Made by a program: the position numbers and the translations under genes. A DNA stretch of 64,000 nucleotides from contig CAWJEM010000011.1 in assembly GCA_963841905.1 (NCBI GenBank), positions 4,064 to 68,063 on the forward strand. The letters are read 5' to 3'. The notes beneath the pieces are model-generated. The model saw only the letters and a program-made list of their open reading frames with translations. It was not told the DNA's origin and did not search any database. Positions 1,802 through 47,196 of this stretch are shown here, one piece after another; position 1 is the stretch's first letter, and each line of letters begins with the position of its first letter. Origin of the DNA: an uncultured Acidobacteriota bacterium. Its GTDB lineage: Bacteria; Acidobacteriota; Vicinamibacteria; Vicinamibacterales; UBA2999.

Positions 1802-4800
1802 CTAGAATCGGCTAACAACCGTCAACTGGAACGCCCGGGCCGGCTGCTGATTGACCATCAGCAGGAAGTTCGAGCTCCAGCTCTGGTACGCGCTGTTGTA
1901 GCTGTATTGGGTGTAGTTACCAGCGTTGAGCAGGTTGAAGAAGTTCCCCGCCACCTCCACCTGGTAGCGCTGATACCGCAGGGTCTTGCCGACCTTCAGG
2001 CCGATCGTCGTGATCAACGGTGACTGAACCTGACCTTCCCCGCGGTTGCTGAACACATAGCGATTGCGGGTCGCCAGCGGATTCGGTTGCGAGGACCCGT
2101 TAGCTAGTCGGACCGAGGGTGGCCCGTACCTGAGCACGTCTGGATCGTTGGCGGCCAGCTGATACAACGGCGATCCCGACCAGGGCCCGGCCTGGAACGT
2201 GGCGCTGGCGGCCACGTTGATGTCCCAGGGAGCCTGCCAGACGCCGCCGAGGTTGCCGCGATACTTCATCCATGTCGGGCCGTAGCTCAGGGCATTGCCC
2301 GTGTCAGGGAGCGAGTTCTCGTCGTTGTTGCCGCGCGGCATGTAGAGATTGGCGTCGTTGGCGAAGTGGTTCGGCTGCACGAAGCGGGCCGGGTCGGTCG
2401 GGTTCCACGTGCCGTCGATCTTGTGCCACTGCCGGGTGAAGCCGGCAATCAATTGGAAGCCCCGCGACATGTTCTTTGTCATGGTCAGCTCCAGCGCTTG
2501 GTACTTGAGCTGACTCCACGTGTTGTTCGTCTGCTGGAAGACGATCCCCTGGTTCGGGTCGACCCGTCCAAAACCCCCGAACGGCTGGCCCGGTCCATCG
2601 GGATAGAAGCCGTTGATGTCGATTCTCGCCCACGTGTCCTTGTACGCGCGGTTGATGTACGCCACATCCAGACCGATTTGCCACCCGAACTGCCGCCGGT
2701 ATCCCACGATGAACTCGTCGACGTACGGCTGATGCAGGTCGGGCGCGATCTGCTGCGCGGCCACGGCAGTCGATGTCGCCGGCAGGAGTTGGATCTCACC
2801 TGCCTCCCCAAACACTCCGTCGAGGTCGTTGTCGTACTCTCGTCGGAACGAAACCGTGTCGTCCGCGCCGAAGATGGTGACCCCGTCTCGTCCCATGACC
2901 TGTTCGCCCATTCGCGCGTAGCTGGCGCGCAGAACGTTCGTGGCATCCTGCGTCAGGAGATAGGTCGCTCCCACTCGCGGCTGCACCGCCCAGGATTTCT
3001 GGCGCGTGATGCCCTTGACCTCGTCAACACGCTTCACGTAGTCGAAGCGCATGCCGAAATTGGCGGTCAGGCGGGCGTCCGGCTTCCAGCTGTCCTGCAG
3101 GTAGAACGCGTAGTTGCTGTCGCGCGCCTGCCGAGTCTGCAGGCTAACGGGATCGGCGTAGTCACGCCGATACGGCACGGTGCCGAGCGAGGGATTGTTG
3201 ACATCGACGACCGTCTGGTATTCGCGGAAGAACCCGTTGTTGACGTACTCCCTCCGCTGGTCGTAGATGTTCTGCGGTTCGAGGAAGAACCCTGTGGCGA
3301 ACTCGTGCGATCCGATCCAGCCTGCCTTGTAGTACGTCGCATCGCCGCGAATCAGAGACAGCGACGCCGGCACGAAGGTTCGCGTCGGTCAGGTTCCCGC
3401 CCTCGAGGATGAGCGAGTTGCCCGTGATGAAACCGCTCGAGATGAGCGTGCCGTCGTAGATAACGATGTTCGGTCCCTGGGCGTCGAACCCGAACGCGTC
3501 GTAGGTGTCGTTGTCGTTGCCGCTCTTGTTGTTGTAGCCGGCCGAGAACGTCGTCGTCATTCTGTCGCCCCACGTCGACGTGATCTTGGCGCTGTAGACG
3601 TTGCCGCCATTCGAGTACACGTTGATGGGATCGAAGTAGTACTGCCAGTTGCTCTGGCCGTGCGTGCGGTCGCGCTGGAAGAACCCCGACAACTCGTGGG
3701 TGGCTCCGAGACGCGAGGTGACCTTCACATATGGCTGGTATCCCTTGATCTGCTGGGGGAACAAGTCTGTGCCGGGATAGTAACTCTGGATGTCGTTGAC
3801 GTTTTTCGAGTTCCGGCTGATCTGAGTCTCGACGGCTGACTTGCGGAACGAGGCGAAGAACCAGACCTTGTCCTTCATGATCGGCCCGCCGAACGAGCCG
3901 TCGAACTGACCGATGTCGGCCTGCACGGGCGTGCCGCCGGTTGTCGTGCATTCCAGGTTCGGGCAGGTTGAATGCTGGGCGAGCGGCGTCCCCGAGAGGT
4001 CGTAAACGGTCTTGTGGTGGGTGTTGTCGTGGTCCCAGCGGAGCGGCTGGTATGCGTACCCGGCGGTCCCTCTGAACGACGTTGCCGCCGCTCTTGGTGA
4101 TCACGTTGATCCCCAGACCGGTGCCCATCGGCGTGGACGCGTCGGACCCGCCCGTCTTGACGTGAATGTCCTGAATCATGTCCGACCCCATCTGCACGTA
4201 GGTGAGCTGGAAGTCGTTGTAGTTGCCCGCCTGCATGCCTTCGAGCTGCACGACGTGGGCGAAGTGTTCCGTGGCGTGCCCGAAGTACACCGATCGCCCG
4301 CTGCCGTCGTCGAAGGGTCTCGAGTGGACGCCAGGCGTCTGCTCGAGGAAGTCAGTCCAGTTCTTCCGGGCGGCAAGCGGCATCTGCTTCTGGAACTCGC
4401 CGTCGATGTTCAGTACGTTGCCGGGCTTGCTGACCTCCAGCATGGGCGAATCGCCCGAGACCGTGATGGTCTCGGCCAGTGTGCCGATCGCCATGACGAT
4501 GTCGACCTGAAAGTTCACGGCCGCGCGCAGCAGAATCCCCTTGCGTTCGTATGCCGAGAACCCCGGGAGCTCTGCGCTGACGGTGTACTCACCCGGGGGC
4601 AAGTTGATCAGACGGTAGTAGCCCGTCTCATCGGTGACGCCAGTTGCCGGCGTGATCATGTCGGGGCTTGTCGCGGTGACCGTGACACCCGGCAGCACTC
4701 CACCCTGTGCATCTTTGACGAAGCCTCGCAGGCTGCTGCCTGTGCTCTGCGCCTCTGCAAAGAACACGCTCGCATTCAATACAACGAGCAGGCAAATCCC

Positions 4801-4821
4801 GAATCGCGTAACACCTCTCAT
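1802..4821 (-). pseudogene. TonB-dependent-receptor-like outer-membrane protein with an N-terminal CarboxypepD_reg domain, interrupted by two +1 frame disruptions (~4077 and ~3355-3385)
   Basis: Three ORF-track pieces (3352..4842, 3162..3926, 1802..3373) join into one ~1000-aa protein. The first junction is ..INVITKSGGNV|FRGTAGYAYQPLRWDH..ADIGQFDGSFGG. The second is ..ILEGGNLTDANL|PASLSLIRGDATYYKAGW. The protein ends ..QLTVVSRF. A GGAGGA RBS precedes the ATG at 4821. An intact paralogue lies at 8796..11651. Confidence 0.8.
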
Positions 4822-4955
4822 GGCGATTCCTCCTGCCGACAAGACAGCAATCGGCCCGTGGGGGCCGCGGTTGACGAACTGACACCTCGGACTCGGACGA
4901 CGAAGCGAGATGCTAGTTTTCGCGGATGATAAGCGATCACTCGCACCGAATAAAG

Positions 4956-7172
4956 CTACTTCGGGAGGGCTTTGAGGAGACCCGCTGCGCGCGGCTCGGC
5001 GGGATCGAGCCGAAGCGCTTCCATCGCCTGAGTCCTGGCCTCAGGAAACCTGCCGAGTTCGGCGTACACCGCGGCGAGGTTGAGGTGGGCGCTGGCGCTC
5101 CCCGGGTCGAGGTGGCAGGCACGCTCGAGATAGGGACGAGCGGTGTGAGGATCGCCGTTCAAGAAGATCGCCAGACCCAGCTTCTCGTGCGCTTCGGCCC
5201 GGTCAGGCGCCAGCTTAACCGCGATCTGCAGCCATCGGATCGCTTCCAGCATGGCGTTTTGCTCGAGTGCCAGCGTCCCGAAGTCGAGCGCAGACTCCTC
5301 AGAAGTTTCTGCCACCGAGTCCGCCATTCCCGATAGTCGCCGGACGGCTTCGTCGGGGCGGCCGGCAAGGACGAGCGCGCGCACGAGCAGCGGGCCGGTG
5401 ACATTGATGTCGTACCGACTGTCGTATGCGGCTTCAAGATGTCCTACGGCTTCAGTGGCGCGCCCGGTCCTGAGCAGCGCTTCTCCGAGCCCGAGCCGGA
5501 TGGCAGGTCGCGGGCCGTCAATCGCGATCGCCTCGACCAGGAGGGCGGCCGCTTCATCCGAGCGCCCCGCATCGAGTAGCGCCTGCGCAACGCTGAACCG
5601 CAGAACCCCAGGGTGAAGATGATCGTGAGACACCTGTTCGACGTATCGGAGCGCATCGTCGAACGACCCTTGCTCGACGAGCCACACGGCCTTGCGCGTT
5701 TGTTCGCCTCCAATCCCATTGTCGAGTCCGAGATTTGAGAACACCACCAGCGAGGCCATCGCAAGGGCACCGGTTGGACGCAGCAGCGCGTTGAACTGGC
5801 GAGCGCGCACCAGGTCGAAACACCGAACGAGCGCGGCGCCAGCCGCGGCGCAGAGCGGCACGAATAGAGGCATCCGGTAGCGATCCGTCACAAAGAAGAG
5901 GACCACCGCTGCTCCGTACACCGGGACGAACATCGCCCAGACCCAATACCCGTGGCGGTTCTTGCGCAGCGCCGGCCAGAACAGGCCGAGCAGGCCAAGC
6001 GGCAGAAGTAGCCACGGACCGATTGCCAGGACGCGAAGGAAAGAGAATGGCTCGCGCGCGTAGAACGCGTAACTGTAGTTGAGTGGAACGTCCACGCGGT
6101 TGAGCAGAATCCTGATCTTGCGTATCCACAACCTCAGTGCATCGGCGGGATGTCCCGTCACCCAGTCGAATGCCCGCCACGCAAAGTAGCTGGAGACCTC
6201 TCCGGGAGAAAGGCTGCGACCCGTACTCGACTCCGCGACGCGAGTCGAATCGTTGGCCTGTCCGGCGATCGATGGAGTGATGCCCGGCACTGGTGTGTAA
6301 GTCCCGTCAGCGCGATCATGGTTGCCGATGTAGAGATTGAGCCCGCCGTGCGAGGCAATCACGACGGCGTCTCCCGACACCGCGTAGTTGCGTGCCGCGT
6401 TGGCTGCGAGGACGGCGAGCAGGGATGCCACCAGCACCGCACCGCGGTTGACCCGAGCCTGCCGCCCCGCCTTCGCCAAGGCTTCCGCCTTCGCCAACGC
6501 TACGGCGGACAAGACGGCGGGCAAGCACTGGTGGACAAATACAACAGCGGCTGCCGCCACAGCAAACACCAGCGCATTGGGTCGATTGAGCGCGAGCAAC
6601 CCCAGTGACGCGCCAGCGACGGCAAAGGCGCCCGTCCCACCACCCGCCATCGACCGCGTGAGAGCGTAGAGAGCACACGACACGAGGAACGGATCCAATG
6701 CAGACTGGAGGATCAGGACTTCGTTGAACGCGAAGATGCCTGTCAGAATCGCGAGTCCGGCAGCGACAAGAGCCGCCCGTTCGCCAAACCAATGCCGAGC
6801 GGTGGCGAAGAGTAATCCCACCGCCGCGGCCCCGAGAGCGATCTGGACCAGTTGCGCCGCAAGCAACGATCCCCCGACCGCAAACACGGCCGCGAGGAAG
6901 TAGACATACAACGGCGACACGAAGAACGCGCCAATGGGCGCAAACACGCCCTCCGCGGCGACTCGCTGACTGAGGGTGACGTAGTACGCGGTGTCGAGTT
7001 CGCCGTGCGGCTGCAGCAATGGGTGGTTCCAAAGCTGCATGAGCACGACCACCTTGACGACGAAGGCCGCTGCCACGATCAACGCGACCCTTCGCCAAGG
7101 GAGGTCCGTGATCGCATGAGCGCCATCGCCCGCGTCAACAACGTCGCGTCGTTCTGCTTGGTGTCGCGCCAA
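4956..7172 (-). CDS. Membrane GT-C-type (ArnT/PMT-like) glycosyltransferase fused to C-terminal TPR repeats
   Basis: The 760-aa ORF has a long multi-pass hydrophobic N-terminal region and C-terminal TPR-like repeats (..EAHEKLGLAIFLNGDPHTARPYLERACHLDP..). The ORF-track start at 7238 lies inside repeat W-B. The in-frame TTG at 7172 is an alternative, so the start is uncertain. Confidence 0.65.
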   Translation of the reverse strand: MARHQAERRDVVDAGDGAHAITDLPWRRVALIVAAAFVVKVVVLMQLWNHPLLQPHGELDTAYYVTLSQRVAAEGVFAPIGAFFVSPLYVYFLAAVFAVGGSLLAAQLVQIALGAAAVGLLFATARHWFGERAALVAAGLAILTGIFAFNEVLILQSALDPFLVSCALYALTRSMAGGGTGAFAVAGASLGLLALNRPNALVFAVAAAAVVFVHQCLPAVLSAVALAKAEALAKAGRQARVNRGAVLVASLLAVLAANAARNYAVSGDAVVIASHGGLNLYIGNHDRADGTYTPVPGITPSIAGQANDSTRVAESSTGRSLSPGEVSSYFAWRAFDWVTGHPADALRLWIRKIRILLNRVDVPLNYSYAFYAREPFSFLRVLAIGPWLLLPLGLLGLFWPALRKNRHGYWVWAMFVPVYGAAVVLFFVTDRYRMPLFVPLCAAAGAALVRCFDLVRARQFNALLRPTGALAMASLVVFSNLGLDNGIGGEQTRKAVWLVEQGSFDDALRYVEQVSHDHLHPGVLRFSVAQALLDAGRSDEAAALLVEAIAIDGPRPAIRLGLGEALLRTGRATEAVGHLEAAYDSRYDINVTGPLLVRALVLAGRPDEAVRRLSGMADSVAETSEESALDFGTLALEQNAMLEAIRWLQIAVKLAPDRAEAHEKLGLAIFLNGDPHTARPYLERACHLDPGSASAHLNLAAVYAELGRFPEARTQAMEALRLDPAEPRAAGLLKALPK

Positions 7173-7178
7173 CGGCAA

Positions 7179-7309
7179 GGTTTCCGGGGTTCCAGGGTTC
7201 CAGGGTTCCAGAGTTCCAGAGTTCCAAGGTTCAATCAAGGTTCATGGTTGCCATTCAGTATCTAGGAACCCTGGAACTTTGGAACTTTGGAACCTTGGAA
7301 CTTTCGAAG
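7179..7309. repeat. Word array W-B: 5 x GTTCC words then 5 x GGAAC words, period 8, forming inverted arms
   Basis: GTTCC starts at 7189, 7197, 7205, 7213 and 7221, plus two degenerate copies. GGAAC starts at 7265, 7273, 7281, 7289 and 7297. It lies between divergent genes. Confidence 0.9.
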
Positions 7310-7332
7310 TAAAGTCCCGCCAGGGGACCGTC

Positions 7333-8703
7333 ATGAAACTCCGTTCCTGGCTCTGGTCGGTGCTCGTCGCCTGCCTGCTGGCGCCGGTTGCGGCCCAGCC
7401 GTCCGCAGAGATCTCATTCGCGCTGACCGGCGACTCCATCATCACCCGGCGCCTCGCGGTGTACGCCGAACCGGCCTTCACGCGCATCATCGACGTCATC
7501 CGGAATGCCGACGTCGCCTTCACGAACCTCGAAATGCTCTTCCACGACTACGAGCCGTATGCGATGAGCGCGAGCGGCGGCACGTACATGCGCGCCGAGC
7601 CCGCGCTCGTGAAGGAGCTCGTGTGGGCGGGGTTCGATCTGGTGTCGCGAGCGAACAATCACTCCGGCGACTACGGCGTTCTCGGGATGAACTTGACGAC
7701 CAAGTACGTGGCCGAAGCCGGCCTCGTACAGGCGGGCGTCGGTCAGAGTCTGGCAGAAGCTCGTGAGGCCAAATTTCTGGAGACACCCAAAGGTCGCGTC
7801 GCGCTCATCTCGATCGCGTCAACCTTCCCCGACCATTCGCGAGCGGGCCGTACGCGCGGCGACATGCCCGCGCGACCGGGTTTGAACCCACTCCGTTTCG
7901 AAACCATCACGACGGTGACGGCGGAGCGGCTCGAAACGCTGAAGCAGATCGCCGGCGAGATCAACGGCCGTCCGGTCACTGCGACCGGCGACTCCTACAC
8001 ATTCTTCGGCCGCCGCTTTACCGTCGGCGCACAACCCGGAATTCGCACCGAGCCCAACAAGGAAGACCTCACCGAGATCGCCGCGGTCGTCAGGAGCGCT
8101 TCCGGCCTCGCGGACTACACGATCGTGACGATTCACGCCCACGAGGGCGGGCGCGATCGTCTGCTTCCGGCCGACTTTCTCGTCACGTTTGCTCGTGCGA
8201 TGGTCGACGCGGGCGCTGACATGTTCGTTGGCCACGGTCCACACGTCTTGCGCGGAGTCGAGATCTACAAGGGCAAGCCGATACTCTATAGCCTCGGCGA
8301 CTTCGTCTTCCAGAACGAGACGCTCCTGCGGCTGCCCAGTGAGAATTACGAGCCGTACGAACTCGGCGCGGCCTCACACGTCAACGACTTCAACGACGCA
8401 CGCTACAACTTCGACAAGACCGGCTTCCCTGCCGATCGGATGATCTGGGAAGCCGTGGTCGCGGTCCCGAAGTTTCGCGGTGAGCAGCTGATGGAGCTCG
8501 CGTTTCATCCCATCACCCTGGGCTTCGGCCAATCGCGCAGCGTGCGCGGCCGGCCGATGTTCGCCGAGGGCGAGCTCGGTCAGAAGATTCTCGGTGACTT
8601 GGTGAAGTTGTCTGCCGCGATGGGTACGAAGATCACCATTCGCAACGGCATCGGCTACGTCGAGCTCCGCGCCGCTGATCAGAGTTCCAGGGTTCCCAAC
8701 TAA
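7333..8703 (+). CDS. CapA/PGA_cap family metallophosphatase-like protein, secreted
   Basis: Signal peptide MKLRSWLWSVLVACLLAPVAAQ begins at ATG 7333. Family motifs SRANNHSGDYG and TIHAHEGGRD are present. The ORF-track start at 7279 lies inside repeat W-B. Confidence 0.75.
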   Translation: MKLRSWLWSVLVACLLAPVAAQPSAEISFALTGDSIITRRLAVYAEPAFTRIIDVIRNADVAFTNLEMLFHDYEPYAMSASGGTYMRAEPALVKELVWAGFDLVSRANNHSGDYGVLGMNLTTKYVAEAGLVQAGVGQSLAEAREAKFLETPKGRVALISIASTFPDHSRAGRTRGDMPARPGLNPLRFETITTVTAERLETLKQIAGEINGRPVTATGDSYTFFGRRFTVGAQPGIRTEPNKEDLTEIAAVVRSASGLADYTIVTIHAHEGGRDRLLPADFLVTFARAMVDAGADMFVGHGPHVLRGVEIYKGKPILYSLGDFVFQNETLLRLPSENYEPYELGAASHVNDFNDARYNFDKTGFPADRMIWEAVVAVPKFRGEQLMELAFHPITLGFGQSRSVRGRPMFAEGELGQKILGDLVKLSAAMGTKITIRNGIGYVELRAADQSSRVPN

Positions 8704-8792
8704 GGTTCCAGAAGTTCCAAGGTTCCAAAGTTCCAAGGGCAGCGTTCAAGTTTGAACTCTGGAACCCTGGAACCCTGGAACCTTGGAACTCT
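8681..8792. repeat. Word array W-C: 6 x GTTCC then 4 x GGAAC, with an apex mini-palindrome GTTCAAgtTTGAAC
   Basis: GTTCC starts at 8684, 8692, 8705, 8714, 8722 and 8730. The apex is at 8744-8757. GGAAC starts at 8761, 8769, 8777 and 8785. It fills the spacer between convergent genes and overlaps the stop codon at 8701-8703. Confidence 0.9.
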
Positions 8793-8795: not shown

Positions 8796-11651
8796 TCACC
8801 AATCGAACTTCGCGCCGAACCGAACGATCCGCGGCGGCACGATGTTGGACGGCCGCAGGAAGTTGCTCCCCGAGGCCAAAGTGATGTTCTGCTCCCCGTT
8901 GTTGTTGAACATGTTGAACACGTCGAAGAATCCCGCCAGGGTGCGGCTGCCACCCAGACGAATCATTTTCTCGACGCGGAGATCGAGGAGCGTGATGTTG
9001 TCCTGACGTATCGTCCCGAGTGGCTCGGCCAGGATGCGCTGCGTGCCAAAGGGCGGGCCGAAGTTGAACTGGAACGTCCGGCCCTGCGGCTGGCCGGACT
9101 GGTGCCGCAGGATGGGCGTCATCTTGATGTTCCACCACGGCGTGTCCCACGTGCCGTGCAGCTTGGCCTGCCACGTCGTGAAATGGTGCCGGCCGTCGAT
9201 GGTATTGATTTCGTCGTTCGGCGTGACCCGAAGATCGTTCTGCTTCACCGTGTTGCCGAAGTAGGCGTTCTCGAACTCCCTCACCCAGGTGTGCGCGAAA
9301 CTCGCCAGCAACGACCAGCGATTGCTGAAGCGCTTGGTGCCAGTGATTTCCCACGTGTAGAAGTCACTGTCGGAATCCGGAATGTTTTTCTGCACGTTGG
9401 CCGCCGGAAGGTTGAACCCTGCCGGCAGGTTGTACCCCTGAATCGGCGCGCCATCGTCAGCATTCCCGCGGGTGTTGTCAGGTCCGAGATCGGGAATCGT
9501 CACGGGGACCGTGTACGCGCTGTACGGACGGTTGACGTCGACGCGCTCGTAGCGCTGCCGCTGACCGCGCCACACCAAGCCGGTCCGTACGCCGAAGTTC
9601 GTCACCAGCTCGCGCTCGAACCACACGGCTGCTTCTCTGGTAAAGGTGTCTTCGAGATCCGGGTCCAGCGATTCGCTCGCCGCGCCGCCGGAGCGCTCGA
9701 TAATCGTCGATCCCTCCTCGCCCGGATCCCAGATGCCGTTGCCGTTCGGGTCGGTCCACGCATATCGCTTGAACCAGCCGCCATTGCGATTCGGGCTGAC
9801 GTTGAACCCAAAGTCGGCTCCCGGGTTCCACCAATACTGTCCGTAATTGAGTTTGACGATCGTCTTGCCGTTGCCCGTGATGTCGTAGGTGAACCCGGCG
9901 CGCGGTGAGACGAGGTTCCAGTTGATCACTTCGTCGACGGCAGCGAAGGTCTGCGGCGTCGGATTGAACCGGCTGACCGGATGCTCCTGTTCGGGGAGGT
10001 AGCCGACGTACTTATCGAAGCGAAGTCCAACGTTGACGGTGAGCCGATTGTTCATCCGCCACGTGTCGTTGACGAACCCCGCGTAGGTCCACAAACCGGT
10101 GATCCCTTCCCCCGGTTCGAAGAGATACACGTCAGTTGGCCTGCCGTTGTCCAGGCGATGCACCACGTCGTTCGGATAACCGTCAATCCAGGTGTCGACC
10201 GTTGTCTCGCGGAACATCTCGCCGCCGACTTTGAAGTTGTGGTTGCCGCCCCAGCCGTCTTTGAAGTAGCTCAACGTGCCGAGTACTTGATTGCGGCGCC
10301 GATCGCGATTCCAGTCGCGATTGCCGCCGGTGATGATGTTGTTCCCGGTGTCCTCGAACCGCGGACCGGTGCCATTGGGATGATTCGGCCAGTTGTAGCC
10401 AAACTGCCCGGCGCGAACTTCGAAGAACGTCTTATCGTTGATGACCGAATTCCATTCGCCCTTCCAGACCCAGCCCCAATACAACTGCTCCCACGTCGAG
10501 TCCTCGTTGACGTTGATGCCGGTCGTGTTGCCGAGCAGGAACGAGTCTTGTCGCAGCGGCTGATGCTTCCGGCCGGCCTGGGCATAACCGATCAGCTTGT
10601 TGTTTTCGCTGAGATTGTAGGTTCCCTTGCCACCGTAGTTGGTCAGCTGTGTCGGGTGAGGCTTGACCGGAAAGTTGGGGATTCTCGCGGCGACATACTG
10701 GTCGCGGAACGATCCGTACCACCACAGGCGATCCCGTATCACGCGGCCGCCGGCGCCCACGTTGACGTCGTGGTACTTGTGCAGCCGATTCAGGTCGCTT
10801 GGCTCCAGGCCGCCAGATGCCGTCAAACCGCGATTGATTTGATCCTGGTCGGTGTTACGCGACTGAATGCTCTCGTTCTCGTAGTCGCCGTAGAACGTCC
10901 CGTGGAAGTCGTTGCCCCCAGACTTGCTGATGAAGTTGGATTGAACGCCCGGCCATGGCATCTCGGCGCTGTGCGCCGCCGCATTGACCGCCACTTCATC
11001 AAACGACCCGTAGTCGTAGTAAAAACCCGCGGCATCGGTGCCCTCTGTCGCGACGATTCCCTCGACCGTGGGCCGGTTCTGACCAGACGTGCCATACGTG
11101 ACGTACCCCGTCTGTGTGCCAGCCGCGCTGCCACCGACGTCGATACGGTTCATCTGGACGCCAGGCGATTCAGCCAGGATGGCCCACAGGTCGCGCGCGC
11201 TCGGCAGGTTCGCCAGCTGCTTGGCGTCGAAGTTGGTGGTGATGGTGGTCGATTGAGTGTCAACCACCGGTGACTCGCCCGTGACCGTGACGCTTTCCTG
11301 CAGCGTCGCGACACCAAGCTCGACGTTCACGGTGGCCGTGAAGCCGAGGGTGACGCGGATTTCGTCACGCCGGACCGTGCCGAATCCAGAGAGCTCGTAG
11401 GTCAGCTGATAGACCCCTGGGGGAATTGCGGGAAAGCGATACTGTCCGTCGCCGGTCGTGACGGCGGTGCGAGTGCCCATCATCGATGGACTCGCAAGCG
11501 TGACGGTCACGCCGGGCAGGATCGCACCCGTGTTATCGGTCACACGACCATTGATTGCGCCGGTCGTTGCACTCACGGCTTGCGCCGCCGCAACAGACGT
11601 GGACAGAAGAAGGAGCGAAAGTGGTAGCGCGAGGAACCGAACCGAGGACAT
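8796..11651 (-). CDS. TonB-dependent-receptor-like outer-membrane protein with a CarboxypepD_reg domain (intact)
   Basis: The signal peptide MSSVRFLALPLSLLLLSTSVAAAQA follows an AAGGGAGG RBS. The protein contains GRVTDNTGAILPGVTVTL..GQYRFPAIPPGVYQL and ends in the barrel terminus ..RFGAKFDW. Confidence 0.85.
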   Translation of the reverse strand: MSSVRFLALPLSLLLLSTSVAAAQAVSATTGAINGRVTDNTGAILPGVTVTLASPSMMGTRTAVTTGDGQYRFPAIPPGVYQLTYELSGFGTVRRDEIRVTLGFTATVNVELGVATLQESVTVTGESPVVDTQSTTITTNFDAKQLANLPSARDLWAILAESPGVQMNRIDVGGSAAGTQTGYVTYGTSGQNRPTVEGIVATEGTDAAGFYYDYGSFDEVAVNAAAHSAEMPWPGVQSNFISKSGGNDFHGTFYGDYENESIQSRNTDQDQINRGLTASGGLEPSDLNRLHKYHDVNVGAGGRVIRDRLWWYGSFRDQYVAARIPNFPVKPHPTQLTNYGGKGTYNLSENNKLIGYAQAGRKHQPLRQDSFLLGNTTGINVNEDSTWEQLYWGWVWKGEWNSVINDKTFFEVRAGQFGYNWPNHPNGTGPRFEDTGNNIITGGNRDWNRDRRRNQVLGTLSYFKDGWGGNHNFKVGGEMFRETTVDTWIDGYPNDVVHRLDNGRPTDVYLFEPGEGITGLWTYAGFVNDTWRMNNRLTVNVGLRFDKYVGYLPEQEHPVSRFNPTPQTFAAVDEVINWNLVSPRAGFTYDITGNGKTIVKLNYGQYWWNPGADFGFNVSPNRNGGWFKRYAWTDPNGNGIWDPGEEGSTIIERSGGAASESLDPDLEDTFTREAAVWFERELVTNFGVRTGLVWRGQRQRYERVDVNRPYSAYTVPVTIPDLGPDNTRGNADDGAPIQGYNLPAGFNLPAANVQKNIPDSDSDFYTWEITGTKRFSNRWSLLASFAHTWVREFENAYFGNTVKQNDLRVTPNDEINTIDGRHHFTTWQAKLHGTWDTPWWNIKMTPILRHQSGQPQGRTFQFNFGPPFGTQRILAEPLGTIRQDNITLLDLRVEKMIRLGGSRTLAGFFDVFNMFNNNGEQNITLASGSNFLRPSNIVPPRIVRFGAKFDW

Positions 11652-13545: not shown

Positions 13546-13663
13546 AAAGTTCCGGTTCACGGTTCCAAGGTTCCAAGGTTCCAACGTTCAATGGTGCTCG
13601 GCCAAGATTCGGAACCCTGGAACTTGAACTTTGGAACTCTGGAACCGTGGAACTTTGGAACCC
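13546..13663. repeat. Word array W-D: GTTCC arm (4 copies plus 2 degenerate) and GGAAC arm (6 copies plus 1 degenerate)
   Basis: GTTCC starts at 13549, 13562, 13570 and 13578. GGAAC starts at 13611, 13619, 13633, 13641, 13649 and 13657. The array begins 3 nt after the stop at 13541-13543. Confidence 0.9.
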
Positions 13664-13742
13664 ACTTGCGTTTCACCGTAGTCCAGCCTAGGCTTGTGCC
13701 GCTACCGGCCGTGACCTGCGAGCAGAGTGACGGCCCGCCCAC

Positions 13743-32441: not shown

Positions 32442-33866
32442 ATGGCCGACCTTCACGTCGTCATTCTGGCTGCCGGCAGAGGCACTCGCATGAAGTCCGA
32501 GTTGCCGAAGGTGCTGCATCGAGTCGCGGGCCGCGCGTTGATCGATCGCGTCGTCGATACCGCCGGTTCGCTGGCGCCTCACTCGACGACTGTCGTCGTA
32601 GGTCATGGTGCCGACCTCGTGCGATCTCACCTCGCAGGAAGGGCCAATACCCACTTCGTGGTGCAAGAACCCCAGTTGGGGACGGGGCATGCGCTCCTTC
32701 AAACCGCGCCGCTGCTTTCGGGCAAGAGTGGGACCGTCGTCCTCCTCTCGGGGGATGTTCCGCTTCTTTCACGGCAGGCCCTACGCGGGCTGGTCGACAC
32801 TCATCACGAGGCAAACGCCGCCGCGACGGTTCTGACGGCGGTTGCCCCGCGTCCGTTCGGGTACGGTCGCATCGTCCGGTCGCAGGGTCGAATCGTACGC
32901 ATCGTCGAGGAGCAGGACGCCTCCCCCGTACAGCGAAAGATCACCGAGATCAATTCGGGCATCTACGCCTTCGCGCTGGAGTCTTTGTTCGGGGCCCTCG
33001 ACAAGGTGGCCTCTCACAATGCGCAGGGAGAGTACTACCTGCCGGACCTGGTCGCGATTTACCGACGGCGGCGGCGCGTCGTCACCACGTTCAGCGTGGC
33101 GGATCCGGTTGAGATTCGTGGAATCAACAGTCGAACAGAACTTGCTGAGGTAAGCCTGATGGTGCGACAGCAGAAGAACGAAGAGCTCATGGCGGCCGGC
33201 GTCACGTTGATCGATCCGGCGACCACCTACATCGACTCCGATGTGGTCATCGGGCCCGATACGGTCGTCTATCCGTGCGTGTTCATCGAAGGCACGACAC
33301 AAATTGGAGCCGCCTGCGAGATTCACTCGGGAAGCCGGATCGTCAACTCGACCATTGGAGATCGCGCCATCATTCGCAACCACACGGTGATCTCGGATGC
33401 GATCGTCTCCGAAGGCGCGTCGGTCGGCCCGTTTGCGCACCTCCGACCCGGCGCCAATCTGGGCGAGAAGGCGCGGGTGGGTAACTTCGTGGAGCTGAAG
33501 AAGACGACCATGGGCGCTGGCAGCAAGGCAAATCACCTGGCGTATCTCGGGGACACCACCATTGGCGCCGAAGTCAACGTCGGCGCTGGGACGATCACCT
33601 GCAACTACGACGGCGCCGCCAAGCACCAGACGGTCATTGGAGACGGCGCTTTTATCGGCAGCAACTCGACGTTGGTCGCCCCGGTTACGATTGGTCGGGA
33701 AGCTTATGTGGCGGCCGGCTCCGCCATCACGACCGATGTCCCCCCGGGCTCGCTCGGAATCGGACGCGCAAGACAGGAAAACAAAGAGGGGTGGGTCGAG
33801 GCGCGACGGGATAAAGTAACAAGTTCAAAGTCCAAAGTGCAAAGTCCCGATACATCGGCAGAGTAG
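32442..33866 (+). CDS. glmU: Bifunctional UDP-N-acetylglucosamine pyrophosphorylase / glucosamine-1-phosphate N-acetyltransferase
   Basis: The N-terminal motif VILAAGRGTRM and C-terminal left-handed beta-helix hexapeptide repeats are present. Length is 474 aa. Confidence 0.9.
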   Translation: MADLHVVILAAGRGTRMKSELPKVLHRVAGRALIDRVVDTAGSLAPHSTTVVVGHGADLVRSHLAGRANTHFVVQEPQLGTGHALLQTAPLLSGKSGTVVLLSGDVPLLSRQALRGLVDTHHEANAAATVLTAVAPRPFGYGRIVRSQGRIVRIVEEQDASPVQRKITEINSGIYAFALESLFGALDKVASHNAQGEYYLPDLVAIYRRRRRVVTTFSVADPVEIRGINSRTELAEVSLMVRQQKNEELMAAGVTLIDPATTYIDSDVVIGPDTVVYPCVFIEGTTQIGAACEIHSGSRIVNSTIGDRAIIRNHTVISDAIVSEGASVGPFAHLRPGANLGEKARVGNFVELKKTTMGAGSKANHLAYLGDTTIGAEVNVGAGTITCNYDGAAKHQTVIGDGAFIGSNSTLVAPVTIGREAYVAAGSAITTDVPPGSLGIGRARQENKEGWVEARRDKVTSSKSKVQSPDTSAE

Positions 33867-33934
33867 TGTTCATCCATTTCATGGCTTCATTCCGGACGCT
33901 TCACTTTGAACTTGTAACTTGTAACTTGTAACTC
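33814..33934. repeat. Word array W-K: CAAAGT-type words versus 3 x ACTTGTA, with a 13-bp perfect long-range stem
   Basis: ACAAGTTCAAAGT (33819-33831) pairs with ACTTTGAACTTGT (33903-33915). (ACTTGTA)x3 lies at 33910-33930. The left arm lies in the last codons of glmU. Confidence 0.85.
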
Positions 33935-33943
33935 ACCAAAACC

Positions 33944-35789: not shown

Positions 35790-35860
35790 CGGTGGCCAGT
35801 GGGCCAGTGGCCAGTGATCGGAGCCGCACCGACCACTGACCACCGACCACTGATCACTGG
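35790..35860. repeat. Word array W-H: GGCCAGTG words versus ACCACTG words
   Basis: The left arm is cggtGGCCAGTGGGCCAGTGGCCAGTGATCgg. The right arm is ccGACCACTGACCACCGACCACTGATCACTGG. CCAGTGATC and GATCACTGG form a 9-bp perfect pair. Confidence 0.85.
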
Positions 35861-38957: not shown

Positions 38958-41459
38958 CTAGCCCTCCTCTGGCGGAGAAGCTACTACTTCTTCATCACGT
39001 TCCACAAGGGCGACCGACACGACGCTGTCGTCCTCCCCGAGATCCATCACGCGAACGCCTTGCGTAGCGCGACCGATGGTGCGGATATCGGCGGCCGGCG
39101 TCCGGAGAATCTTGCCCTGTTGGGTGATGACCAGCAGCTCGTTGTTCTCGTGCACCTGGGCGATGCCGACCACGGGGCCGTTTTTCTCGGTAATCTCCAG
39201 GTTCTTCAGGCCGAGGCCGCCGCGGCTCTGGACGCGATACTCCTCGAGATCGGTCCGCTTGGCATACCCCTTCTGCGTCACCGTCAACAGGGTGCCGCCC
39301 GGTTTGACGACCTCCATGGCCACGACCTGGTCGCCCTCCCGCAACTGAATGCCCCGGACGCCGTACGCCGTTCGTCCCATGCTCCGGACATCATCTTCGC
39401 TGAAGCGGATCGCCATCCCCATTCGTGTGCCGATGAAGATCTGGCTTTCGCCGTCGGACAGTCGGACGGCCATCACCTCGTCGTCTTCTTCAATGCCCAT
39501 CGCGATGATGCCGCCCGCCCGCGGGTTGCTGAACGATGCCAGCTCGGTCTTCTTGATCGAGCCCTTGCGCGTCCCCATGACGATGAAGTGCTTCTCGTCG
39601 AAGTCCAGAACGGGCAACATCGCCGCTGTTTTCTCCCCTGGCTGCATCTGCACGAGGTTGGCGATGGCTTTGCCCTTGCCGTCCGGGCCGACATCCGGGA
39701 TCTCGTGAACCTTGAGCCAATACGCCCGGCCGCGATCCGAGAACACCATCATGTAGGCATGTGTCGAGGCCACGAACAGGTGATTGACGACATCTTCTTC
39801 GCGCGTTCGCATGCCGATGCGGCCTTTGCCGCCTCGCTTTTGATTGCGGTAGGTCGAAATGGGTGTCCGTTTGATGTAGCCGGTATCGGTGACGGTGATC
39901 GCCACGTCCTCGTCCGCGATGAGATCCTCGATGCTCAGCTCGCCTTCCTGGTCCAGGATGGTCGTGCGCCGGTCGTCGCCGAACTTGCTCTGCACCCCGC
40001 GCAGCTCGTCGATGATGATCTCGAGCAGCAATCGATCGCTGGCAAGGATTTCGCGCAAGCTTCCGATGAGCGCGACGAGCTCGCCCAGTTCATCGAGGAT
40101 CTTCTGGCGTTCCAAGCCGGTCAGCCGTTGGAGCTGCATGTCGAGGATGGCCTGGGCCTGCAGCTCACTCAACCCGAATTCGGAGACCAGTCCGGCCTTT
40201 GCCTCCAGTGGATTCTTCGACGCTCGAATCAGCGCGATCACGGCGTCGAGCTTGTCGAGGGCAATCCGCAGGCCCTCGAGGATGTGCGCCCGCGCCTCGG
40301 CCTTGCGAAGCTCGAACTCGATGCGCCGGCGGACGACCTCGCGCCGGAACTGAACGAACTCCTCGATGACCTCTAGCAGCGTCAGCACTCGCGGCCGGCC
40401 GGCAACGATGGCGAGCATGATGATGCCGAACGTCTGCTGCAGCTGCGTGTGTTTGTAGAGGTTGTTGAGGATGACCTCGCCCACTTCGCCGCGCTTCAAC
40501 TCGATCACGACGCGCATGCCGTCGCGATCCGACTCATCACGAATGTCAGAGATGCCTTCGATGGTCTTGTCGCGAACCAGGTCGGCAACGCGTTCGAGCA
40601 GCCTCGCTTTGTTGACCTGATAAGGAATTTCGGTGATGACGATCTGCGATCGATCGCCCTTCTTCATGGGCTCGATCTCCGCCTTGGCGCGCATCTGCAC
40701 GCCACCGCGGCCGGTCAGATACGCCTCGCGGATCCCCGAGCGCCCCACGATGAGCCCGCCGGTGGGGAAGTCGGGACCGGGAATACGCTCGATGAGCCCC
40801 TTGAGCTTCTGCTCCCGCGTCAAGGTCGTCCGCGGCGCCGGTCCGGGCGCCGGAGGCATCAGCGTCTGCTCGATGAGCCACACCGCGCCTTCGATGACCT
40901 CGCGAAGGTTGTGGGGTGGGACGTTGGTCGCCATGCCGACTGCGATACCAGCCGACCCGTTGACCAAAAGACTCGGAAACGGCGTGGGCAGGACCGTCGG
41001 TTCGTGCGTCGTTTCGTCGAAGTTGGGAACGTAGTCGACGGTGTCCCGGTCGAGGTCGGACATCATCGATTCCGACAACGCCTCGAGGCGGGCTTCGGTG
41101 TACCGATAGGCCGCCGGCGGATCCCCATCGACGGACCCAAAGTTGCCCTGGCCGTCGACCAGCGTGTAGCGCATGTTGAAGTCCTGCGCCAAACGGACGA
41201 GCGTATCGTAAGCCGGCGCATCGCCGTGCGGGTGATAGTTGCCGATCACCTCGCCGACGATCTTCGCGCACTTGCGATGCGCACGATTCGAGGCCAGGCC
41301 CATCTGCCGCATGGCGTACAGCACGCGCCGATGCGCCGGTTTCAACCCGTCGCGAACGTCAGGCAGCGCCCGCCCGATGATCACGCTCATCGCGTAATCG
41401 AGGTACGAGCGGCGCATTTCGTCTTCGATGTTTACGGGAATACGTTGTTCGGTGGTCAT
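38958..41459 (-). CDS. gyrA: DNA gyrase subunit A
   Basis: 833 aa. Contains ..NYHPHGDAPAYDTLVRLAQDF.. and the active-site region AAYRYTEARL. Confidence 0.95.
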   Translation of the reverse strand: MTTEQRIPVNIEDEMRRSYLDYAMSVIIGRALPDVRDGLKPAHRRVLYAMRQMGLASNRAHRKCAKIVGEVIGNYHPHGDAPAYDTLVRLAQDFNMRYTLVDGQGNFGSVDGDPPAAYRYTEARLEALSESMMSDLDRDTVDYVPNFDETTHEPTVLPTPFPSLLVNGSAGIAVGMATNVPPHNLREVIEGAVWLIEQTLMPPAPGPAPRTTLTREQKLKGLIERIPGPDFPTGGLIVGRSGIREAYLTGRGGVQMRAKAEIEPMKKGDRSQIVITEIPYQVNKARLLERVADLVRDKTIEGISDIRDESDRDGMRVVIELKRGEVGEVILNNLYKHTQLQQTFGIIMLAIVAGRPRVLTLLEVIEEFVQFRREVVRRRIEFELRKAEARAHILEGLRIALDKLDAVIALIRASKNPLEAKAGLVSEFGLSELQAQAILDMQLQRLTGLERQKILDELGELVALIGSLREILASDRLLLEIIIDELRGVQSKFGDDRRTTILDQEGELSIEDLIADEDVAITVTDTGYIKRTPISTYRNQKRGGKGRIGMRTREEDVVNHLFVASTHAYMMVFSDRGRAYWLKVHEIPDVGPDGKGKAIANLVQMQPGEKTAAMLPVLDFDEKHFIVMGTRKGSIKKTELASFSNPRAGGIIAMGIEEDDEVMAVRLSDGESQIFIGTRMGMAIRFSEDDVRSMGRTAYGVRGIQLREGDQVVAMEVVKPGGTLLTVTQKGYAKRTDLEEYRVQSRGGLGLKNLEITEKNGPVVGIAQVHENNELLVITQQGKILRTPAADIRTIGRATQGVRVMDLGEDDSVVSVALVERDEEVVASPPEEG

Positions 41460-41465
41460 TTCAGA

Positions 41466-41566
41466 AGGGCGTAGGGCATGGGGCTTAGGGCAAAGGGCAG
41501 GGTTGAGGGTTTAGGGAAATGCATCTCTGTTCCCGCTAAGCCCTATGCCCTGTGCCCTACGCCCTG

Positions 41567-41567
<1 letters not shown>
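41466..41567. repeat. Word array W-L: eight G3-containing GGGC-type words versus a CCC-containing complementary arm
   Basis: AGGGCGTAGGGCA (41466-41478) pairs perfectly with TGCCCTACGCCCT (41553-41565). GGGCTTAG (41481-41488) pairs with CTAAGCCC (41536-41543). It fills the gyrB-gyrA spacer. Confidence 0.9.
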
Positions 41568-44197
<2,630 letters not shown>

Positions 44198-44207
44198 TCA
44201 CAAACAA

Positions 44208-44275
44208 GCCTCAGAGGCACAGAGACTCAGAAACTCGTAATGGCTCCCTGTCTCTGAGACTCTGCGTCTCGGGGG
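44208..44275. repeat. Word array W-M: CAGAG-type words versus CTCTG-type words
   Basis: gcctCAGAGgcaCAGAGactCAGAAac .. ctgtCTCTGagaCTCTGcgtctcggggg. About 17 of 21 positions are complementary. It lies in the dnaN-gyrB spacer. Confidence 0.85.
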
Positions 44276-44307
44276 CTTTCCCGTTTATCGGCCTGTCTGT
44301 GCCTCTC

Positions 44308-45420
44308 TCACACCCGCATCGGCATAATCACGTAGGTGTAGTCGTAACCCTCGACGCCGACCGGTCTCATAACCGCCTGACTTACCTCGTCTTTCAACTC
44401 GAGCGCGACCACATCGCTTTCGACAACGTTCAGGAAATCCTGAACATACTGCGCGTTGAAACAAATCGTCAGCGCCGGGCCGCTGTAGTCCACGCTGAGC
44501 GGCTCGCGCGCCTCGCCGAACTCCGGGCTGCTGGAGGTGACCTCGACCCTCCCCTTGTCAATCAGGAACTTCACAGCTCGAGAACGTTCATTCGACAGAA
44601 TCGACACGCGACGGACGGCGCTCGTCAAGCGATCGCGCTCGAACTCGATGCGCTTGTCATTCGCTTTTGGAATGACCTTCTCGTAAGCCGGAAACTGTCC
44701 ATCAATCATTCGCGAGATCAACAGGCGCGGCCCGATCTCGAAAAACAGGTGGTTCTCGCCCCGCTCATAGTGGACGTCGCTGTCGTCCACGACCAGGCGC
44801 GAGAGCTCGGCCAGCGTCTTCCGCGGAAGAATGGCCTTGATCTCGTCACCCGCCGGGCCCGCCGGGTCGCGGCGCGCATTGACCAGCGCGAGACGATGGC
44901 CATCAGTCGCGACCAGCGTCATCGCGTCGGGACGGAGCAGAAACAACGCGCCATTCAAATAAAACCGCGTGTCTTCGCCCGTAATCGCAAATTGCGTCTT
45001 CGCCACCATCTCGCGGAGCGCGTTTCCCTTGATCGTCGATCGCACACCTGCGCCTGCTTCGGGAAGGCTCGGAAAGTCCTCGCGCGGCAGCGTGGGCATT
45101 CGCGACTCAAACTTCTCGGCCGACACCTTCACGCCAGTCCCGCCTTTTTCGGTGGCAAGTTTGACGTCCGACTCGGGCAACGCCCTCACGATCTCGTACA
45201 ACTTCTTCGCGGGTAGTGTTACGGCACCCGCCTGGTCGACGGCAGCTTCGCAACGGCTGCGCAAGGCCACTTCGAGATCGGTGGCGAGAAGCGTCAGCTC
45301 ACTACCGTTCGATTCGAGCAGCACGTTCGCCAGGATGGGAATCGTGTTCTTGCGCTCAACGATCTGCTGGAAGAATTGCAGTTCCCGCACAAGATCGGCT
45401 TTCCTGGCGACCAGTTCCAT
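44308..45420 (-). CDS. dnaN: DNA polymerase III beta sliding clamp
   Basis: 370 aa. The N-terminus is MELVARKADLVRELQFFQQIVERKNTIPILANVLLE and the C-terminus is ..YTYVIMPMRV. Confidence 0.95.
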   Translation of the reverse strand: MELVARKADLVRELQFFQQIVERKNTIPILANVLLESNGSELTLLATDLEVALRSRCEAAVDQAGAVTLPAKKLYEIVRALPESDVKLATEKGGTGVKVSAEKFESRMPTLPREDFPSLPEAGAGVRSTIKGNALREMVAKTQFAITGEDTRFYLNGALFLLRPDAMTLVATDGHRLALVNARRDPAGPAGDEIKAILPRKTLAELSRLVVDDSDVHYERGENHLFFEIGPRLLISRMIDGQFPAYEKVIPKANDKRIEFERDRLTSAVRRVSILSNERSRAVKFLIDKGRVEVTSSSPEFGEAREPLSVDYSGPALTICFNAQYVQDFLNVVESDVVALELKDEVSQAVMRPVGVEGYDYTYVIMPMRV

Positions 45421-45675
45421 GAAATTGTCCCCGGATGGACGGGTCCTTTGGACCCCTGTGTACGACTCAATCTTGAGGTAATGAGAGTAGACAAGAAATT
45501 ATACAGGAAATAGGTGCTGTTGACGAAATTAGCCGTGCTTGTAACCCCAAATCTATCAACAATTTAAACTGTGGATTTTTCTGTGGTACCGGCGTGGACA
45601 ACCGGAGCCTTTCCGGGCTCGTTTGGGGTCGGTTGGAGCCATCAACAAGACGTCAACAGATGGGGTTGTGGAAAT
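45421..45675. other. Candidate oriC / DNA-unwinding region (locally AT-rich dnaA-dnaN spacer with degenerate DnaA boxes)
   Basis: It is visibly more AT-rich than the rest of this high-GC window (..gaaattatacaggaaatagg..caacaatttaaactgtggattttt..). Box-like 9-mers are TGTGGATTT (45570-45578), TGTGGTACC (45582-45590) and TGTGGAAAT (45667-45675). Confidence 0.45.
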
Positions 45676-47013: not shown

Positions 47014-47196
47014 GCTCGTAGACGCCCTGAAACTCGGTGCTTTCGGACTTTCGCCTCGCGCCGAGCGCGGTGTTACACGGTCTTTGCAACCGTCACTGCA
47101 ACGAAACAACCGTTTGGAGCCGTTTCTGGCCCTTCGCATCGCGGAAACGCCCGAAAAACGGCGATCCGCCGCTGCCCCGGCCGTGTTTGCTCAGGT

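Follow-up and report, generated by a model that had tools for sequence, protein, structure and literature searches.

The window (the whole stretch of DNA that was analysed, 64 kb from an uncultured Acidobacteriota bacterium) carries at positions 7179–7302 a palindrome built from two facing arrays of octamer repeats, with GTTCC units on the left and GGAAC units on the right. This element separates a glycosyltransferase (GT) gene on the minus strand from a CapA/PGA_cap gene on the plus strand. We consider it about an even chance that the element is a passenger copy of a genome-wide, fast-evolving class of palindromic microsatellites, sitting at the joint of an inversion. The parts of the locus are listed below; L numbers denote loci in other genomes, of which L003 is the closest relative of the window.

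4956–7172, minus strand: GT gene (GT-C type, PMT_2, with C-terminal TPR repeats), assigned by Pfam and homologues.
7131–7133, minus strand: usual start position of the GT family; GCG in the window, GTG in L003 and L121, ATG in L123 and L124.
7134–7172, minus strand: segment homologous to the GT leader of relatives (TTGGCGCGACACC...), in frame with the GT open reading frame (ORF), with TTG 7172 as a possible start.
7179–7232, no strand: left arm, with five exact GTTCC words, an outer degenerate unit GGTTTCCG and an inner degenerate unit AGGTTC.
7189, 7197, 7205, 7213 and 7221: GTTCC words, period 8.
7233–7264: central spacer of 32 nt, AATCAAGGTTCATGGTTGCCATTCAGTATCTA, with decayed units CAAGGTTCA and TGGTTGCCA in its left portion.
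7265–7302: right arm, five GGAAC with period 8, reading GGAACCCT GGAACTTT GGAACTTT GGAACCTT GGAACT.
7265, 7273, 7281, 7289 and 7297: GGAAC words, period 8.
7180 (GTTTCC), 7228 and 7239 (GGTTC), and 7304 (TCGAA): degenerate flanking units.
7287–7292, plus strand: candidate CapA −35, TTGGAA, supplied by repeat units, 17 nt upstream of the candidate −10 and matching TTGACA at 4/6 positions.
7310–7315, plus strand: candidate CapA −10, TAAAGT, followed by CC; identified by conservation in seven loci.
7314–7332, plus strand: short CapA leader with a Shine–Dalgarno-like AGGGGA (7322–7327) in a small GUCCC/GGGAC stem, conserved in L001 and L125.
7333–8703, plus strand: CapA/PGA_cap gene, 456 aa with a signal-peptide-like N-terminus (Pfam PF09587, E = 2.4e-52).
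8683–8790: sister GTTCC/GGAAC array, filling the convergent spacer between the stop codons of CapA (8701–8703) and of a gene for an outer membrane protein (OMP; 8796–8798).

An earlier note on this DNA had described five GTTCC and five GGAAC words facing each other, both with period 8, and we confirmed their coordinates exactly. Tandem Repeats Finder reported period-8 repeats at 7178–7232 (6.9 copies) and 7272–7308 (4.6 copies), and an inverted-repeat search returned arms of 28 nt with 82% complementarity. The two-unit pattern GGTTCCNNGGTTCC, with at most one mismatch, occurs 31 times in the window against an expectation of 0.35, a count reached in none of 100 shuffles. Folded as RNA, the plus strand gives an unbroken helix with G.U pairs (−83.5 kcal/mol, z −8.2 versus shuffles); the corresponding values are −71 kcal/mol and z −7.1 for the minus strand, and −37.4 and z −6.0 for the element folded as DNA. 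The stem spans approximately 34–40 bp around the 32-nt centre, and with a centre of that size cruciform extrusion is unlikely. In sequence, that centre resembles none of its counterparts in the window's other GTTCC arrays. On the minus strand, the left arm reads as (GGAAC)n and stops 6 nt short of the GT TTG at 7172. Like variants lie side by side in the left arm, where three GGGTTCCA units are followed by two GAGTTCCA units, and the variable positions of the left and right arms do not co-vary in register. This pattern fits local slippage duplication within each arm.

The credible starts of the flanking genes had been given as 7333 and as 7172 or lower. Translation of CapA from ATG 7333 yields 456 aa, homologues are 444–482 aa long, and the best match, at 99% identity, is also 456 aa, all of which agrees with that start; the database matches of CapA are annotated as Vicinamibacterales, phylum Acidobacteriota. 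The GT frame is open in the window up to TTG 7172 and 7178, and 7172 is the most upstream start supported by homologues, with the caveat that the codon at the usual GT start is GCG (7133–7131). The N-terminus of GT homologues is either (M/V)(N/S)D(S/A)A(H/R)A or, some 15 codons upstream of this, MARHR. Because the stretch equivalent to 7134–7172 is out of frame or closed by a stop in L123 and L124, this stretch is, judging from the alignments, conserved as nucleotides (a leader) and not as protein. The GCG at 7131–7133 on the minus strand falls within a cluster of five substitutions in 26 nt relative to L003.

Approximately 131 of the 160 nt between TTG 7172 and ATG 7333 belong to the element, which leaves 6 nt on the GT side and 24–30 nt before the CapA ATG, so neither promoter can lie wholly outside the element unless it lies beyond it. 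The anatomy given in the earlier note, with the element occupying the divergent promoter region, is right; the candidate −10 of CapA sits one base past the end coordinate given there, 7309. Upstream of CapA, the sequence TA[AC]AGTCC is invariant in the window, L003, L001, L125, L126, L127 and L123, and TA[AC]AGT with its trailing CC is the only conserved block among these seven otherwise unalignable loci. In L123 and L126, TTGCGT takes the place of TTGGAA at 17–18 nt upstream of the −10-like hexamer. The hexamer of L123 lies 6 nt before the CapA ATG, which suggests a leaderless arrangement in that genome. Because the conserved −10 lies downstream of the element, the CapA mRNA of the window probably starts near 7322, about 7 nt past the −10, and would not include the hairpin. 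For GT, the −10-like region of relatives (TCTACAAT or TCTAGAAT) has been replaced by the array in the window; we found no convincing GT promoter at the locus and propose none. Two candidates picked by eye, TTCCAA-N17-GATACT in the centre and TTGATT-N17-AACTCT, were rejected as weak, and the first is altered in L003. The choice offered in the earlier note, between promoters embedded in the element and a 5′ leader that includes it for both genes, is thus too coarse for CapA, for which the candidate −10 is outside and only the candidate −35 is made of repeat units; for GT the promoter was not located.

Two further observations concern sequences of this type. A −35-like motif, TTGCGT(TTC), recurs directly after hairpins (window 13666–13694, L123 9481–9510 and L126 3268–3297), each time 17–18 nt upstream of a TA-rich hexamer (TAGGCT, TACAGT and TAAAGT), and the combination may represent a local promoter consensus. 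In L126, a direct, not inverted, array of five GGAAC (3300–3375) lies between the CapA −10-like hexamer and the start codon, presumably within the CapA 5′ leader.

Gene order in related genomes indicates how the two genes came to face each other. The order in L123 is cytC(−) S9-peptidase(−) GT(+) OMP(+) CapA(+), and the GT(+)–OMP(+) pair is retained in L121, L122 and L124. L001 and L125 read cytC(−) OMP(+) CapA(+), L126 has an OMP fragment, and in L127 cytC(−) lies directly beside CapA(+). The window and L003 have the order cytC(−) OMP(−) GT(−) | CapA(+). On this comparison of gene orders, the GT–OMP pair is inverted in the lineage of the window and L003; the cytC–CapA interval is rearranged in nearly every relative compared. 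Homology on the GT side with L121, L123 and L124 holds up to TTGGCGCGACACC (7172) and then breaks, and homology on the CapA side begins at approximately 7303 (TTCGAAGTAAAGTCC), or, with L001 and L125, at TTCG(A/C)AGTAAAGTCC. Because homology ends at both of its borders, the element is, by these alignments, exactly the stretch between two ancestral flanks, and its divergent position is by the same comparison a by-product of the lineage-specific inversion. Consequently, the copy at 7179 would say little about the purpose of the arrays.

Other features of the inverted block are as follows. A G-rich array of AGGGCNN heptamers (1572–1625) lies upstream of the cytochrome c gene, beside the other end of the inversion, and its equivalent in L003 consists of four copies of ACAGGGC. 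The TonB-dependent-receptor-like OMP gene downstream of GT (1802–4842, minus strand) is spread over three reading frames, with shifts near 3390 and 4090, and in L003 the OMP frame changes at least five times. Indels of long-read assembly are the probable cause; pseudogenisation after the inversion may also account for the shifts.

The element differs in length between the window and L003, where the left arm is 17 nt shorter, the right arm is 16 nt longer and the centre has three substitutions in 32 nt, with nearly identical flanks. L003 shares the three units nearest the promoter, with a single substitution. Between the window and L003 the two neighbouring GTTCC arrays vary too, centres included, and L001 and L125 differ upstream of CapA by a 32-nt (4 × 8) block of degenerate units. 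CapA is 99% identical between the window and L003; a 16.9-kb region is 91.5% identical including gaps and contains 161 small indels, values that rule out L003 as a near-identical strain. We relied only on differences of whole units, since the small indels are probably assembly errors.

Repeats that are prone to slippage and vary in copy number between strains or relatives, within a divergent promoter region, call to mind phase-variable promoters such as that of hifA/hifB. In Haemophilus influenzae, the (TA)n tract between the divergent hifA and hifB promoters is phase-variable, and the repeat lies between the −35 and the −10. Changes in unit number shift the −35/−10 spacing in such systems, whereas at this locus the candidate −10 is not within the array, length varies at a distance from the putative promoter, and the spacing stays at 17 nt.

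The palindrome at 7179 is one of approximately 14 arrays of period 7/8 in the window, most of which are inverted pairs and which fall into several unit families. Arrays of period 7–9 make up about 1% of the sequence (2.8 per 10 kb) and fill most of the spacers examined. The families, and the arrays found in operon-like spacers, are listed here.

7179, 8683, 13556 and 55688: arrays of the GGTTCCNN (GTTCC) family.
41463, 54584 and 59740: AGGGCNT and GGGCACA/CCTGCGC arrays.
44210, 61376 and 63841: CTCAGAGA arrays.
33814: AAGTNCA array.
35792 and 59714: CAGTGAY arrays.
33814–33935: array in the glmU|glmS spacer, downstream start at 33944.
35792–35859: array in the glmS|uvrD spacer, downstream start at 35865.
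41463–41568: array in the gyrB|gyrA spacer, downstream start at 41459.
49924–50014: array in the yidC|jag spacer, downstream start at 50024.
55688–55838: array in the parA|parB spacer, downstream start at 55848.

Distances between arrays and genes were taken from exact stop positions and from start codons identified in the sequence itself. For the other 13 arrays, a gene ends 0–75 nt away in every case (within 42 nt for 12 of the 13), so the element at 7179 is indeed the only array in the window that could not be a 3′-end structure, as the earlier note had said. An array occupies one of about six divergent spacers in the window; the dnaA/rnpA spacer at the replication origin has none. That spacer contains three DnaA-box-like 9-mers, TTTTCCACA, at 47197–47228, and belongs to an oriC region (38958–56741) in which Pfam identified gyrA, gyrB, dnaN and dnaA on the minus strand and rnpA, yidC, jag/khpB, mnmE, mnmG, rsmG, parA and parB on the plus strand.

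The five arrays in operon-like spacers finish 3–9 nt before the downstream start codon. Gene pairs of the parAB, gyrBA, glmUS and yidC–jag type are normally co-transcribed and, if this holds in this organism, hairpins inside them would not be efficient terminators. The general claim that the arrays are not simply terminators is therefore upheld, through the arrays inside parAB, gyrBA, glmUS, glmS|uvrD and yidC–jag, and the route by which it had first been reached, from the divergent position of one array, is a weak one. An array in a second divergent spacer, found in another acidobacterial genome (L098, described below), points the same way. Among nine arrays in unidirectional contexts, the sense strand folds better in only three; accordingly, G.U wobble was rejected as an indicator of strand, and the comparison gives no hint that the sense RNA is under selection.

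Arrays of the same unit occur well beyond this genome. When one genome from each species was scanned for (GGTTCCNN)x3, at least 117 stretches were returned. The matches listed include many Acidobacteriota (Vicinamibacterales, Thermoanaerobaculia, Holophagales and Solibacteraceae) as well as Saprospiraceae, Bacteroidales, Chloroflexales, Planctomycetota and more; the actinomycete matches may be coding sequence. For gene contexts around arrays in these other loci we used only cases checked by hand, since a gene caller based on GC content at third codon positions miscalled some of them: L001, called divergent, and L099 are actually tandem. Among the matches listed, 35 loci are paired; GTTCC leads in 33 of them, and the two with GGAAC first (L065 and L106) are from Planctomycetota. 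At the same listed loci, 18 inverted pairs of other unit families were encountered by chance, and in 17 of these G-minus-C is higher in the 5′ arm. The 33:2 ratio is a plain count over phylogenetically non-independent loci and not a formal probability. Because an inverted pair reads alike on both strands, this polarity is independent of gene and replication direction. Neither purine nor keto richness served as a single rule of polarity, each failing for some families; an excess of G over C in the 5′ arm holds, with T over A for the GTTCC family, in which G equals C.

The unit is shared between distant phyla and can be replaced at a single site. Five Saprospiraceae/Bacteroidales loci (L067, L077, L082, L086 and L119; 45–48% GC) carry GGTTCC(AA/AG) octamer hairpins approximately identical to those of Vicinamibacterales (62–67% GC). 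The convergent CapA/OMP spacer that holds the sister array in the window is occupied by CTCCCTGAT 9-mers in L001 (7355–7402) and L125 (4853–4902), and by GGCAGGTN 8-mers in L126 (4745–4830). This spacer is therefore wholly filled by a hairpin in three lineages, with unrelated units and with the G-rich arm first in all three. The density of arrays also varies, from none in 35 kb of L121–L124 to 2.8–4.9 per 10 kb in the window, L001 and L126. The GT protein of L121 is 93% identical to that of the window, yet arrays are absent from the 35 kb of L121–L124.

Inverted pairs of short tandem repeats have been described before. Rehm et al. (2015; PMC4692102) reported intergenic pairs of inverted heptamer simple sequence repeats of 2–26 units, GGGAATC in Xanthomonas and GGGGAYT in Nostoc, with 70–75 pairs per genome on opposite strands, in convergent orientation and capable of forming stem-loops. 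Those repeats are found near stop codons or overlap them, seldom lie between divergent ORFs, differ among related species and are transcribed, without an established function (PMC4692102). The arrays studied here likewise consist of inverted pairs of short units, are intergenic and close to stop codons, vary in length and have the G-rich arm at the 5′ side. They differ in having an octamer with G = C, several unrelated unit families per genome, and hosts among the Acidobacteriota and Bacteroidota. At the palindrome itself, a unit in the 6–9 nt range is repeated at least twice head to tail (period 8; 6.9 and 4.6 copies), and the arrays lie on opposite strands in convergent orientation with arms 32 nt apart and GTTCC first. 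The class has many intergenic copies near ORF ends and few between divergent ORFs (approximately 14 in 64 kb; one of about six divergent spacers), and its sequence and length vary at the same site, as seen for the arms in L003 and for the three units of the CapA/OMP spacer. G-quadruplex potential, taken as at least four G3 tracts, is absent: the left arm has three runs of three or more G (at about 7186, 7195 and 7203), and many sister arrays are of the type AAGGTTCC, with GG only. Such potential is a feature of the published example (PMC4692102) and not of the architecture. Judged by its architecture, the element is a further member of this known and poorly understood kind of bacterial repeat, and the literature searched contained no description of GGTTCC arrays.

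Several other known systems resemble the arrays in part. The best functional analogy is with repetitive extragenic palindromic (REP) sequences, bacterial interspersed mosaic elements and REPINs, which are also multicopy intergenic hairpins located after stops and within operons with a fixed polarity, and which allow downstream genes to be expressed. REPs are reported to protect mRNA 3′ ends, to cause attenuation and, very near stop codons, to interfere with terminating ribosomes, roles that would fit the positions of the arrays here. However, REPs are single palindromes of 20–40 nt with a GTAG/CGTC tag, near-identical copies and a partner transposase of the RAYT family, whereas the arms here are tandem arrays of variable octamers, the element has no GTAG/CGTC tag, and the centres of different copies are unrelated and unconserved. 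The short tandemly repeated heptamers of cyanobacteria and the TAACTGA repeats of Beggiatoaceae, cyanobacteria and Bacteroidetes (PMC4679880) are likewise intergenic tandem 7-mers. Their unit, too, is common to distant phyla, and one may ask whether a transferable trans-acting factor is involved. TAACTGA repeats are oriented toward the downstream start, often stand immediately upstream of starts that have no Shine–Dalgarno sequence, and form direct sets (169 direct versus 1 indirect; PMC4679880), whereas the arrays here are inverted.

Intrinsic or bidirectional terminators are similar in being stable hairpins directly after stops, and the CapA/OMP hairpin has been kept while its sequence was replaced. 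The array at 13556–13663 is followed by a promoter-like site, TTGCGT-N17-TAGGCT, in a classic terminator-then-promoter layout. At the palindrome, both flanking genes read away from the element, and the stem of approximately 34 bp with its 32-nt centre, where an intrinsic terminator has a short GC-rich stem and a loop of 3–8 nt, is not followed by a T-run (the tail at 7302–7309 is TTTCGAAG). A terminator scan of the locus found only an unrelated site at 6942–6927. Canonical T-tailed hairpins are scarce in these genomes, with 16 candidates in approximately 400 kb, which split eight against five in the order of the G-rich arm, with no clear preference. In Rfam 15, generic miRNA-precursor hairpins were the only matches, all of them below threshold (33 bits or less, versus thresholds of 39–94).

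Taken as a passenger, the element could have arisen as follows. Arrays would grow by replication slippage within each arm, and the two arms would be kept alike by a process acting on DNA, for example template switching within the palindrome or copying between loci. The inversion set the 5′ end of GT facing the 5′ end of CapA and removed the ancestral GT promoter region. The array at 7179–7302 would then be a passenger and not a purpose-built regulator. CapA would be transcribed from the −10 at 7310–7315 with the repeat unit TTGGAA (7287–7292) taken over as −35, giving an mRNA that lacks the hairpin, and GT would be transcribed from inside or across the element, with a leader that includes at least the left-arm units. 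Changes in copy number would fall at the outer end of the left arm and at the centre-proximal end of the right arm, leaving the candidate CapA −35/−10 spacing unaffected.

A number of observations weigh against reading the element as a passenger. The assignment of the CapA promoter depends on one conserved hexamer and a match of 8/12 to the consensus, and a sigma-70 scan of 6900–7600 with a threshold of 9/12 reported no site. The array may predate the inversion, since GGAAC-type units occur upstream of CapA where the pair is not inverted (two decayed units in L001 and five units in L126); it may also have arisen at the joint or have mediated the inversion. Both the window and L003 resemble long-read assemblies that contain indel errors, which makes small differences between arrays somewhat uncertain. 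Other arrays abut the starts of the essential genes gyrA, parB, glmS, uvrD and jag, where the only clear Shine–Dalgarno sequence is AAGGTG before parB, a position that might point to a function in expression and not to neutrality. An array also fills a second, independent divergent spacer in L098, an unrelated Acidobacteriota metagenome-assembled genome; this spacer is flanked on the minus strand by a thymidine-phosphorylase-like gene (ATG 817) and on the plus strand by an ORF for a membrane protein (GTG 965). Almost all of that spacer (817–965) is a GTTCC/GGAAC hairpin array (843–958), at distances of 25 nt and 6 nt from the two starts, indicating that arrays can persist in promoter regions and might act there. 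Lastly, simple slippage does not explain the fixed polarity (33:2 and 17/18), the GGTTCC unit shared with Bacteroidota, or the three units at one site, and these regularities argue for a sequence-specific constraint or machinery.

The likeliest alternative, though we regard it as unlikely in itself, is the view of the earlier note, in which the palindrome serves to regulate the two divergent genes, with promoters embedded in it or with a structured 5′ leader in both mRNAs that affects stability, translation or processing, for example RNase III cleavage of the helix of approximately 34 bp. The filled spacer, with only 6 nt to the GT TTG and 24–30 nt to the CapA ATG, would suit such a role, as would a hairpin that is very stable on both strands, the spacer of the same design in L098, the GGAAC array of L126 between the conserved −10 and the CapA ATG, and the lack of another visible promoter for GT. 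However, with the conserved −10 of CapA located past the element, the CapA mRNA would probably not contain the hairpin, and the junction is recent and lineage-specific. Moreover, arm lengths and centre differ in L003, and the folding asymmetry of arrays across the window does not follow the direction of transcription.

It is quite unlikely that the element is a product of recombination or repair, formed by an inversion between two hairpin arrays or as a scar at a DNA break, and so marks the point where DNA was broken and rejoined. Homology to relatives stops at the two edges of the element, the cytC–CapA interval has been rearranged in almost all relatives compared, and whole arrays have been replaced at one orthologous site. 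The G-rich strand also runs 5′ to 3′ toward the centre from both sides, as expected if both 3′ ends of a break were extended; we know of no bacterial enzyme that extends the 3′ ends of breaks with such units, which counts against this explanation. The other end of the inverted block (approximately 1537–1800) has no GTTCC array, only a single GGTTCC, an AGGGC-type array and the GC-rich hairpin of the OMP gene (1737–1777), which OMP has retained as its own when compared with L122 and L124. For this reason we rejected recombination between two GTTCC arrays as the origin of the inversion. The GGAAC-type units upstream of CapA in L001 and L126, where there is no inversion, likewise count against this explanation, as an array may simply have been in place already.

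An origin as a non-autonomous mobile element, resembling a miniature inverted-repeat transposable element (MITE) or a REPIN, spread by a transposase acting in trans and inserted between GT and CapA, is improbable. Unit families do occupy several loci within 64 kb (four or five for GTTCC, four for the AGGGC type and three for the CTCAGAGA type), with fixed polarity within families, the GGTTCC unit occurs across phyla, different families have been swapped at one site, and density differs strongly between related lineages. However, the centres of the GTTCC copies (7233–7264, 8739–8760, 13590–13610 and 55716–55745) share no core, the element has no conserved termini beyond the units, and neither a direct repeat flanking 7179–7302 nor a target-site duplication at 7173–7178 and 7303–7310 was found, which led us to reject identity with a MITE. 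In addition, copy number is highly variable, no transposase could be linked to the arrays, and for the Xanthomonas repeats, too, no link to mobile elements was found (PMC4692102).

The arrays could also consist of protein-binding sites that recruit or titrate a factor at both promoters, either a nucleoid-associated or regulatory protein or, with the outward GGAAC units as −35 elements or decoys, sigma factors of the extracytoplasmic function (ECF) type. Promoters of this type combine a GGAAC −35 with a spacer of 16–17 nt and a −10 of the CGT or TC type. GGAAC(TT) matches the ECF-type −35 consensus, and the Acidobacteriota, Bacteroidota and Planctomycetota, which carry the arrays, are rich in ECF sigma factors. 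Although the polarity makes GGAAC read outward on both sides, the same unit occurs in genomes of 45% and 67% GC, and GGAACTT (7281–7287) is followed after 16 nt by TCGAA (7304–7308) in a loose resemblance to a sigma-E-type promoter, we consider this very improbable, because the AGGGCNT, CTCAGAGA, CAGTGAT and CCTGCGC families share the architecture without GGAAC, a period of 8 is out of phase with the DNA helix, TCGAA stands in register where a decayed unit would be expected anyway, and most arrays face gene ends, where outward promoters would yield antisense RNA.

On the passenger reading, the single element matters little, and it cautions that a striking palindrome need not reflect a regulatory design. 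What is new here concerns the class: the fixed polarity of the arms, the same unit in Bacteroidota, three unrelated units in one orthologous spacer, and arrays inside parAB, gyrBA and glmUS. Polarity, the cross-phylum octamer and unit replacement at one spacer are not explained by slippage, nor by the G-quadruplex idea of PMC4692102, and these three regularities provide testable handles on the old question of why some free-living bacteria amass long-unit simple repeats between their genes. It would be a long shot that the arrays are made and maintained not by plain slippage but by a dedicated, horizontally transferable and sequence-specific machinery, possibly one that adds or copies units onto 3′ ends at DNA breaks or hairpins, or a new kind of non-autonomous mobile palindrome. 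If true, such a machinery would jointly explain the polarity, the occurrence of GGTTCC across phyla (62–68% versus 45–48% GC), the replacement of units, densities from 0 to approximately 5 arrays per 10 kb, and the position at a rearrangement joint.

The arrays also affect annotation, in that they create false start codons and lengthen ORFs. The start codons at 7238 (minus strand) and 7279 (plus strand) are examples, and the ORF list confirms that both fall inside the arms, as had been noted earlier.

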